A stretch of 64,000 bases of DNA from Escherichia coli (lineage in GTDB: Bacteria > Pseudomonadota > Gammaproteobacteria > Enterobacterales > Enterobacteriaceae). The notes beneath the pieces were generated by a model, which did not search any database, was not told where the DNA came from, and was given only the letters and a program-made list of their open reading frames with translations. Positions 191 to 1,249 of this stretch are shown here, one piece after another (the first letter of the stretch is position 1; each line of letters begins with the position of its first letter). Location: the NCBI RefSeq assembly GCF_030013205.1, contig NZ_CP122648.1; one strand, 5' to 3'. A program made the position numbers and the translations under genes.

Positions 191-1249
191 TCATCCGTTC
201 TGACTGACTAAATCCTGAACTTCCCTCACCGTCTGCTCAAAACGCCCGGTCTCCAGCTCAACGCCAATTGCACGACGTCCCAGCGCCATCGCTGCTTTGA
301 CCGTCGAACCCGACCCCATGAAAAAATCTGCAACCAGATCTCCCGGACGACTGCTGGTGGTAATTATCTGACGCAACATCTCCGCCGGTTTTTCACAGGG
401 ATGTTTGCCGAGGTAATACTGTACAGGCTTATACATCCAGACATCCGTATACGGAACAGCAGCCGATACAGAAAAATAACGCCGCAGTGATTTGTATTCC
501 TCCAGCAGGCTGGCATATTGCCGGTTCAGTTCACTGTATGTGCTGACCAGCTGGTGGTGTGGCTTTTCCAGTTCCCCGCGCTGATGTTTTTCTGCTGCAG
601 CACGCGCAAACAACGCCTGCAATTTGTTGTAATCACCCTCGTTCGGCAACTGCCACTGACTTGTACCAAACCAGTGTGACGCCATGTTTTTCTTTCCGGT
701 CGCTTCCGCTATCTGTTTCGATGTTACCCCAAGTGATTCACGCGCATCACGAAAGTAAGAAATCAGCGGGGCCATGACGTGCTGTTTTAGCTCGCGCCCC
801 TTTGCCGCATAGCCGTCATTTTTGGGCTGGTATGGCCCCTGATAATGTTCTGCAAACAGAATACGTTCTGTTGCCGGGAAATACGCCCGCAGGCTTTCCT
901 TGTTGCATCCGTTCCAGCGTCCAGACGGCTTCGCCCAGATAATGTGGTTCAGCACATTAAAGCGTTCACGCATCATGATTTCGATGTCAGACGCCAGGCG
1001 ATGACCACAGAACAGGTAAAGACTTCCGGTGGGCTTTAATACACGCCAGAATTGTGCCAGACACTGGTCCAGCCATTTCAGGTAATCATTGTCGCCCTTC
1101 CACTGGTTATCCCAGCCCTCGGGCTTCACTTTAAAGTATGGCGGGTCTGTGACTATCAGATCGACAGAGTTTTCCGGTAAGGTCTGGATAAATTCCAGGC
1201 AATCAGCGTTGATTAACTCGCAACTGGATATTTTTACAGTATTAGCCAT
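191..1249 (-). CDS. DNA methyltransferase, beta-class (DPPY then FxGxG), N6-adenine or N4-cytosine; no adjacent restriction gene seen
   Basis: 352-aa ORF with IVTDPPYF (motif IV) upstream of C-terminal FFMGSGST (motif I). Confidence 0.85.
   Translation of the reverse strand: MANTVKISSCELINADCLEFIQTLPENSVDLIVTDPPYFKVKPEGWDNQWKGDNDYLKWLDQCLAQFWRVLKPTGSLYLFCGHRLASDIEIMMRERFNVLNHIIWAKPSGRWNGCNKESLRAYFPATERILFAEHYQGPYQPKNDGYAAKGRELKQHVMAPLISYFRDARESLGVTSKQIAEATGKKNMASHWFGTSQWQLPNEGDYNKLQALFARAAAEKHQRGELEKPHHQLVSTYSELNRQYASLLEEYKSLRRYFSVSAAVPYTDVWMYKPVQYYLGKHPCEKPAEMLRQIITTSSRPGDLVADFFMGSGSTVKAAMALGRRAIGVELETGRFEQTVREVQDLVSQNG

Follow-up and report, generated by a model that had tools for sequence, protein, structure and literature searches.

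A prophage-borne M.EcoGII-family adenine methyltransferase beside stx2e in Escherichia coli, and its conserved structured leader as a candidate regulatory RNA

The methyltransferase gene at the left end of the window (the whole 64,000-nucleotide stretch of Escherichia coli contig NZ_CP122648.1, assembly GCF_030013205.1, that was analysed) encodes an orphan member of the M.EcoGII/M.EcoGI family, with intact motifs, under purifying selection, without a restriction partner and in a fixed position after the late-gene antiterminator gene Q (Table 1). We consider it likely that this intact orphan methylase belongs to a late, Q-dependent anti-restriction function, and that in the present strain the gene is carried as a silent passenger. 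The gene is already known, being L24 of phage phiP27 and an annotated member of a characterised enzyme family, and there is little new about it: it is an ordinary copy of a well-known prophage enzyme family. The sole element of the locus that may be new is the structured RNA leader that precedes the coding sequence.

Table 1. Features of the methyltransferase cassette and its surroundings, in window positions
Feature	Position	Strand	Description
argN-type tRNA	1-67		cut by the window edge; next after the ileZ-type tRNA
Phage tRNA, CAT anticodon, ileZ type	75..150	-	ARAGORN, Rfam tRNA, K_EC180 annotation
Methyltransferase CDS	191..1249	-	ATG start, one reading frame, 352 aa; beta-class N6-adenine, M.EcoGII family; phiP27 L24 allele; RefSeq WP_096098492.1
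Structured 5' leader of the methyltransferase mRNA	1250..1386	-	~137 nt; conservation, covariation, folding
Terminator-like hairpin	1396..1413	-	GCCUUC-CGCAGU-GAAGGC then U6; end of the small ORF, upstream of the leader
Small ORF, phiP27 L23 homologue	1400..1597	-	65 aa; phrog_331, PHROG E 1.4e-37
Stx-phage-conserved block ending in an intrinsic terminator	1721..1804	-	hairpin ~1722-1745 then U6
Late-gene antiterminator Q	2300..2680	-	126 aa; PF06530 Phage_antitermQ E 8.5e-54; annotated Q in K_EC180
DUF968/HNHc_6 protein	3048-4103		

The protein matched a sole Pfam family, PF01555 (N6_N4_Mtase), with an E-value of 1.6e-44 and a score of 152.9 bits (cut-off 26.7). The match covered residues 29-340 of the protein and positions 1-219 of the profile (profile length 221), with 312 residues spread over the 221 profile positions. 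The DPPY motif at residue 35 comes before the FxGxG motif (FMGSG) at residue 310, which is the motif order of the beta class, and the catalytic and SAM-binding motifs are all intact. The first-pass annotation had read the gene in the same way, as a beta-class methyltransferase with DPPY before FxGxG and a long central insert, and both observations were borne out. Indeed, the solved beta-class enzymes (M.BceJIV, RsrI, CcrM, MboIIA, and HpyAVI) align with the protein at residues 8-112 and 282-340 only, and the stretch between the two core halves measures ~169-170 residues here versus ~77 in M.BceJIV, the middle being ~90 residues longer than in the compact beta-class members. This "insert" is the target-recognition/linker region of the M.EcoGII family and is not peculiar to this gene.

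The AlphaFold (AF2) model was of moderate quality (mean pLDDT 65, with a confident core and central loops below 50) and was used for the core fold and for the helical character of the insert only. In the model, the middle is mostly helical, with helices at residues 146-173, 177-184, 190-193, 204-223, and 231-254. When the model was compared with the PDB using Foldseek, the top matches were all beta-class enzymes, among them CcrM, M.BceJIV, RsrI, and MboIIA, with E-values from 1e-13 to 1e-10. CcrM and M.BceJIV, the best PDB matches by both sequence and structure, have the same catalytic fold and motif order; however, the identity is ~20% and limited to the core, the central region of the window protein bears no relation to their recognition parts, and they are sequence-specific enzymes (GANTC and GTWWAC) that act as cellular epigenetic regulators.

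Sequence comparison placed the protein inside a known family. It is identical to phiP27 L24 at 347 of 352 positions (99%) and 87% identical to the methyltransferase of phage 1720a-02. Against M.EcoGII (reference sequence machine-read from the PDF of PMC11551740, Supplementary Table S1, with a few evident misreadings), 303 of 349 positions were identical with 2 gaps, i.e., 87% over the full length. By region, the identity to M.EcoGII was 94% in the N-terminal core half, 80% in the central part (residues 113-281), and 89% in the C-terminal core half. Furthermore, the alignment with homologues contained mosaic segments common to different alleles. M.EcoGII and M.EcoGI share with the window protein the overall architecture (349-352 aa, with DPPY in the N-terminal half, FxGxG in the C-terminal half, and a long recognition/linker region in between), the location on a lambdoid prophage, and the lack of a restriction partner. 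The window allele differs from M.EcoGII at ~13% of residues (~20% in the central region), in the substitutions P280L and A298T, in a C-terminus 3 residues longer, and in lying on a Stx2e prophage with the toxin genes directly downstream.

M.EcoGI and M.EcoGII are prophage-encoded beta-class enzymes, 95%-identical paralogues from lambdoid prophages of E. coli O104:H4 C227-11, and methylate adenine in any context (Murray et al. 2018, PMC5778455). The same paper describes a "very large family", names the enzyme of phage 1720a-02 as very similar, and reports that M.EcoGI and M.EcoGII are silent in the lysogen, deleterious on expression, and presumed to overcome host restriction. M.EcoGII, the reconstructed ancestor Anc291, and SUPREM have all three been reported as non-site-specific. 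The window protein is 87% identical to Anc291 and 71% identical to SUPREM, while M.EcoGII and SUPREM are themselves 70% alike, and it therefore falls inside the sequence space of the non-site-specific enzymes. Judging from this comparison, context-free adenine methylation is most likely a property of the window allele too; since its central region differs from that of M.EcoGII at ~20% of residues, the allele may have some sequence preference.

The family is widespread. Homologues formed 3139 clusters (90% identity, E<=1e-10) distributed over Escherichia, Shigella, Citrobacter, Salmonella, Klebsiella, Cronobacter, Pantoea, Erwinia, and other genera. They were found in 1979 of the 5426 complete E. 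coli genomes (~36%), a single genome carrying as many as six copies. Among phage records, 304 had a homologue, most of these being Stx-converting phages. Pairwise dN/dS between the window gene and five phage homologues ranged from 0.05 to 0.14 overall and from 0.08 to 0.13 in the central region; against phiP27 it was 0.047. These low values indicate that the family is under purifying selection, although it is silent in lysogens.

The genomic setting was read together with the chromosome of the swine E. coli K_EC180 (NZ_CP062203.1), to which the window is 99.99% identical over >50 kb and in which the gene is annotated as "DNA-methyltransferase". In K_EC180, the locus is a ~22-kb prophage inserted in ompW. 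The 9 kb that lie to the left of the window in that genome contain tRNAs, stx2eA/stx2eB, a truncated terminase small subunit gene, a truncated tail-fibre gene, Rha/ash genes, and an ompW fragment. To the right of the gene, the window contains the small ORF, a 166-aa ORF, Q, RusA, DUF968, hokD, an IS481 element inserted in the nin region, and a SIR2-like gene; further right are replication and immunity genes (dicA/dicC type), dicB, an exonuclease gene, xis, and int (15566-16696). Beyond int, an intact ompW is followed by core chromosome up to the end of the window. The ileZ-type tRNA is directly downstream of the methyltransferase, the phage tRNA genes being 40 nt away, and the order ileZ-argN-argO-stx is the same in phiP27 and in Stx2a phages. 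The stx2eAB genes are hidden just past the left edge of the window; neither they nor the M.EcoGII/phiP27 L24 family identity had figured in the first-pass annotation, which was incomplete, though largely correct, in its interpretation.

No restriction endonuclease was annotated in the prophage, in the rest of the window, or, in K_EC180, in the 9 kb to the left. The lack of an adjacent restriction gene, noticed earlier within the window, thus holds past its edge, where the left flank is made of tRNAs and stx2eAB: a restriction gene just outside the window, which would have spoken against an orphan enzyme, was looked for in the 9-kb left flank of K_EC180 and was absent. The phage origin proposed for the gene is also correct, with a qualification: the prophage is without lysis, head, and most tail genes and is clearly a defective remnant. 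Given this state of the prophage, the gene is probably a silent passenger beside stx2e in this strain.

The locus was also compared with that of phiP27 (NC_003356), in which L24 is recorded as "putative DNA methylase". The flanking small ORF, the leader, the tRNAs, and stx2e are all the same in the two loci. In contrast to the window remnant, phiP27 is complete as a phage, lysis and morphogenesis genes included, and it carries a GIY-YIG nuclease gene between Q and the cassette, in the slot that is occupied here by the 166-aa ORF.

The state of the prophage also raises the question of whether the gene, intact as it is, is a dead or dormant relic in this strain, where the prophage is unable to go through a lytic cycle and the enzyme is perhaps crippled by P280L and A298T. 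Besides the loss of lysis, head, and most tail genes, the truncation of the terminase and tail-fibre genes and the IS481 insertion in the nin region agree with this. So do the two substitutions, which are rare at highly conserved positions: among 201 distinct family members, residue 280 is Pro in 98.5% and residue 298 is Ala in 98%. Both adjoin motif X/motif I, flanking the HPCEKP motif N-terminal to FxGxG, and could change the activity of the enzyme. However, both are also present in L24 of phiP27, which is a functional inducible phage, the dN/dS between the window gene and its phiP27 counterpart is that of a constrained gene, and no catalytic or SAM-binding motif is damaged. On balance, we regard a dead or dormant gene as unlikely. 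Such a reading, plausible in itself, concerns the present-day role of the gene in this strain, and it is compatible with the main explanation of what the gene is.

Then, we considered the position of the gene relative to Q. The methyltransferase was just downstream of Q in every context examined. In Stx2a, Stx2c, and Stx2e phages, the order is Q, a variable insert, the small ORF, the methyltransferase, ileZ-argN-argO, and stx; in Klebsiella, Pantoea, and Salmonella prophages, it is Q, the small ORF, the methyltransferase, holin/endolysin, and terminase. The Q proteins of the loci compared belong to three unrelated Pfam families (PF06530, PF03589, and PF06323). The fixed position after Q therefore marks the cassette as the first coding unit of the late operon. 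The small ORF was found upstream of the leader in 118 of 129 loci and was missing in the other 11; its product is 80-100% identical across E. coli, Klebsiella, Pantoea, and Salmonella loci and gave a weak winged-helix/TrmB-like Pfam match (E 0.0026), below the cut-off.

Two hairpins lie between Q and the gene, and both are conserved among phages with stem-preserving differences. The one nearer to Q, at 1722-1745, folds at -13.3 kcal/mol and belongs to a block (1721-1804) that is conserved irrespective of its upstream neighbour. This block is identical at 69 of 84 positions (82%) to the segment directly after Q in Sakai Sp5, which likewise closes with a hairpin and a T run. For Sp5, the constitutive PR' transcript has been reported to end at tR', directly downstream of Q, unless Q acts (PMC7547250). 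By analogy of sequence and position, the 1722-1745 hairpin is probably a tR'-type terminator of the late promoter transcript. The published StxS/tR' coordinates, given for an earlier version of the record, could not be matched to this hairpin, nor could the RNase E site described with them. The second hairpin, at 1396-1413, was found by terminator scan and folding; between phages its stem is kept while its loop is different, and the stem covaries across loci (UA/CG/GC).

A consensus scan of positions 1-2800 found no sigma-70-like promoter on the strand of the gene, and the same scan did not locate PR' on the minus strand, where the candidates picked by eye were weak. The conserved RNA blocks upstream of the gene were also considered as the prophage sRNAs AgvB/AsxR, which was ruled out, as those are convergent genes downstream of a moron CDS.

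Between the second hairpin and the start codon is the structured leader. It is composed of two domains, a long hairpin at ~1333-1379 and a multi-stem domain at ~1250-1326. In the helix that closes the multi-stem domain, GGUCACAAGC pairs with GCUUAUUGAUCU, so that positions -12 to -1 relative to the AUG are covered; the 5' arm of this helix is GGUCACAAGC and the 3' arm is GCUUAUUGAUC. No obvious Shine-Dalgarno sequence was found before the ATG of the methyltransferase. The leader is near-invariant in four genera, and its conservation is above that of the flanking coding sequence. A 21-mer of the leader, AATGGGCGGCTGGTGGGTGTT, is present in at least 120 viral contigs, and in 127 of 134 copies of this 21-mer a DPPY methyltransferase starts 128-134 nt downstream. 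Leader and methyltransferase occur together, and the leader hardly changes, even where the enzyme is only 62% identical to that of the window.

The two-domain structure was then evaluated on 84 distinct sequences, gathered by the exact 21-mer, so that the 5' arm of the first hairpin is invariant by construction: 97% of the cells were paired, versus 26-38% with slid partners. Compensatory pairs, with both sides changed, numbered eight in the leader versus 0-3 in the slid controls, and four of the eight are in the closing helix. None of 500 shuffles reached the values observed for the leader. The window leader folded alone gave the same structure, with a minimum free energy of -63.1 kcal/mol and a z-score of -3.14, and none of 200 shuffles was as good. 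An alternative helix, UGUGR/UCACA, was paired in 99% without double changes. A search of viral contigs for related loci returned close relatives only (88-99% identity) and added no depth to this survey.

The conservation of the leader is not explained by a protein. An overlapping 48-codon ORF was not accepted as a gene, its frame being broken by indels between phages. Regarding known RNAs, no Rfam match was obtained for the leader, either at the gathering thresholds over positions 1-17500 or at E<=5 over positions 1150-1900; the matches in these scans were tRNA, sok, and one chance-level match at the terminator hairpin. We tentatively propose that the leader is a previously undescribed cis-regulatory RNA of M.EcoGII-family genes, with the closing helix hiding the start region, although we would not be surprised if this proved incorrect. 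The leader may work as a gate on translation until late lytic growth, perhaps with the help of the co-occurring 65-aa winged-helix-like protein, and it might also be a ligand- or protein-responsive switch.

In phage Mu, com/mom combines a small upstream ORF with an mRNA structure that buries the start codon. The arrangement seen here, in which a small ORF and an RNA that occludes the start codon precede a toxic gene for DNA modification, would resemble that of Mu com/mom in its logic, and we offer the parallel only as a lead. The likeness is in the way of working only: Mu mom is also a DNA-modifying anti-restriction function that is silent in the lysogen and toxic if expressed (PMC12707154). 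However, the two are unrelated in sequence, Mom does not belong to the SAM methyltransferases, and the product of the small ORF looks winged-helix-like, unlike the Com zinc finger, and is missing in 11 of the 129 loci.

Taken together with the gene order, these elements suggest how the gene might work in a complete phage. Q would let RNA polymerase past both terminators, and the gene would be transcribed late in lytic growth only; the structured leader, burying the start region, would limit translation further. The enzyme would then methylate adenines throughout the replicating phage DNA before packaging, and the progeny DNA would thereby be protected, on entering the next host, from type I, II, and III restriction that is sensitive to adenine methylation. 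In the lysogen, the off state would avoid a toxic hypermethylation of the chromosome. The defective prophage of this strain is no longer able to fulfil such a role. We infer the late, Q-dependent expression of the methyltransferase from the gene order and the hairpins. The first-pass annotation had suggested an anti-restriction or an epigenetic role: anti-restriction is the role proposed in the literature for the M.EcoGII family (PMC5778455, PMC12707154), whereas an epigenetic role in the lysogen is unlikely, the gene being separated from Q by two terminator hairpins and by a leader that sequesters its start.

An epigenetic role would call for a sequence-specific orphan methyltransferase in the style of Dam or CcrM, expressed in the lysogen and leaving its mark on host or prophage genes. 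It is true that the closest solved structures are orphan beta-class enzymes such as CcrM and M.BceJIV, and that the central region is the part most diverged from M.EcoGII (80% identity). Nevertheless, the protein is 87% identical to the non-specific M.EcoGII, and family members only 70% alike are both reported as non-specific; the two terminators and the leader stand upstream of the gene; and lysogen methylomes show no motif from homologues, as in O111 STEC, where the methylomes contained no methylation signature from them. We thus consider this reading very unlikely. Moreover, since the characterised members of the M.EcoGII family methylate adenine in any context, there is probably no modified motif to find. 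The comparison of the methylomes of the lysogen and of a cured strain, which had been suggested earlier as the way to find such a motif, is ill suited to an enzyme that is silent and context-free: it would most likely show nothing, which would be mistaken for a refutation.

It is also highly improbable, in our view, that the physiological substrate is RNA, i.e., the adjoining tRNAs or rRNA. M.EcoGII methylates RNA in vitro, the phage tRNA genes are close downstream, and a Stx-prophage methyltransferase has been shown to act on 16S rRNA (PMC10810198). However, the rate of M.EcoGII on RNA is ~100-fold below its rate on DNA (Table S3, PMC11551740), and the tRNA neighbours are peculiar to Stx phages, holin genes taking their place downstream of the gene in Klebsiella, Pantoea, and Salmonella prophages. 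The rRNA enzyme, furthermore, is a different protein. M.EcoPA8orf6770P, which works with PNB-2 (PMC10810198), resembles the window gene in being annotated as a "DNA adenine methyltransferase" of a Stx prophage and in having a small partner protein, but it belongs to the MT-A70 family, has a DPPW motif, lies in another place in the phage genome, and has 16S rRNA as its substrate. Neither an MT-A70 domain nor DPPW was found in the window protein, which has DPPY and matches PF01555 only. The possibility that the Stx-prophage "16S rRNA methyltransferase" of Koudelka (PMC10810198) is the present gene with its small neighbour as a subunit was ruled out on these grounds.

Finally, that the gene is the modification half of a restriction-modification system, with its endonuclease encoded either just beyond the window edge or by the DUF968/HNH gene 2 kb upstream, is scarcely tenable: the best PADLOC model for the methyltransferase is labelled "Type II methyltransferase" and the DUF968/HNHc_6 protein is indeed nearby, but the left flank is occupied by tRNAs and stx2e, DUF968 is a common nin-region gene that has no PADLOC match and is missing from a Klebsiella locus that keeps the methyltransferase, and a context-free methylase would have no meaningful cognate specificity.

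M.EcoGII is widely used as a tool, as in MadID, chromatin footprinting, and SUPREM. For the question of how the phage holds this toxic, natively silent methylase back and later switches it on, the leader offers a concrete, testable handle. If the proposal is true, such a gate would restrain an enzyme that methylates adenines across the genome until the late lytic phase, a logic to be compared with that of Mu com/mom.

As regards the distribution of this particular allele, a 100%-identical gene was found in 14 complete genomes, all from pigs and including O139:H1 strains. In this setting, the methyltransferase marks the Q-tRNA-stx late region of a porcine edema-disease-type Stx2e prophage.

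The methyltransferase gene is preceded by a conserved, structured RNA leader, and its ATG lies directly 3' of this element. Covariation analysis on 84 sequences identified eight compensatory pairs, with 97% of cells paired, and the last helix of the leader covers the nucleotides from -12 to -1 relative to the start codon. The leader is still kept at loci where the enzyme is down to 62% identity, and it had no match in Rfam. More upstream, we found a 65-aa ORF showing 80-100% conservation in E. coli, Klebsiella, Pantoea and Salmonella: in 118/129 loci it is located 5' of the leader and the methyltransferase. 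Its product, a candidate regulator, may control the methyltransferase cassette.

The positions of the features are reported in the table.

Features of the prophage (window positions unless stated otherwise)
Feature	Position	Strand	Remarks
stx2eA/stx2eB	K_EC180 record 2779029-2780264; K_EC180 locus (L001) 7381-8616		just left of window position 1
Structured RNA leader, ~137 nt	1250-1386	-	conserved; covariation; related loci L002-L134
65-aa ORF	1400-1597	-	phiP27 L23, phrog_331; weak TrmB/winged-helix match
Block ending in hairpin and U run	1721-1804	-	82% identity to Sakai Sp5 post-Q segment
166-aa ORF	1818-2318	-	between Q and tR'-like hairpin
hokD toxin CDS	4961-5116	-	
IS481-family transposase gene	5188-6261	+	
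sok antitoxin RNA	6220-6387	-	Rfam match
SIR2-like protein gene	6590-7549	-	PF13289; weak PADLOC SIR2/PDC-S21 matches

As regards the enzyme itself (191-1249), the Stx2e/phiP27 allele carries the substitutions P280L and A298T. Among 201 distinct family members, at least 98% have Pro at the first of these residues and at least 98% have Ala at the second; the two positions lie on either side of the HPCEKP motif.

Between the gene of the antiterminator Q and the cassette, the block with the terminal hairpin is probably the terminated late-promoter leader (StxS/tR' region), and therefore it may give rise to a small RNA in lysogens. The slot of the adjacent 166-aa ORF is occupied by a GIY-YIG nuclease in phiP27 and is empty in phage 1720a-02. 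In the ORF product, a signal-peptide-like stretch (MFKKSLLLTLVMCLLFSSFADA) precedes a region that is basic and rich in His, and the product had no match in Pfam, PHROG or PADLOC; the ORF could be a moron, with its transcription driven by the constitutive late promoter.

In the nearly identical pig E. coli chromosome K_EC180, a tRNA cluster and then stx2eA/stx2eB are found immediately past the left window edge; therefore, the window begins within the late region of an Stx2e prophage. This prophage is defective, is located at ompW and belongs to a porcine E. coli lineage.

The early region of the prophage also contains a SIR2-like gene, a candidate prophage-borne defence gene with no relation to the methyltransferase. 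In the region 4961-6387, the transposase gene separates hokD from the sok match, and the hok/sok locus appears to be split by the IS481-family element.

Comparing the window to K_EC180, the sole sizeable difference seen was near ychJ/purU, where ~80-90 bp (window ~41164-41242) are missing or rearranged in K_EC180. This difference offsets the coordinates of the downstream tyrT/tyrV tRNAs by 92 bp between the two sequences.
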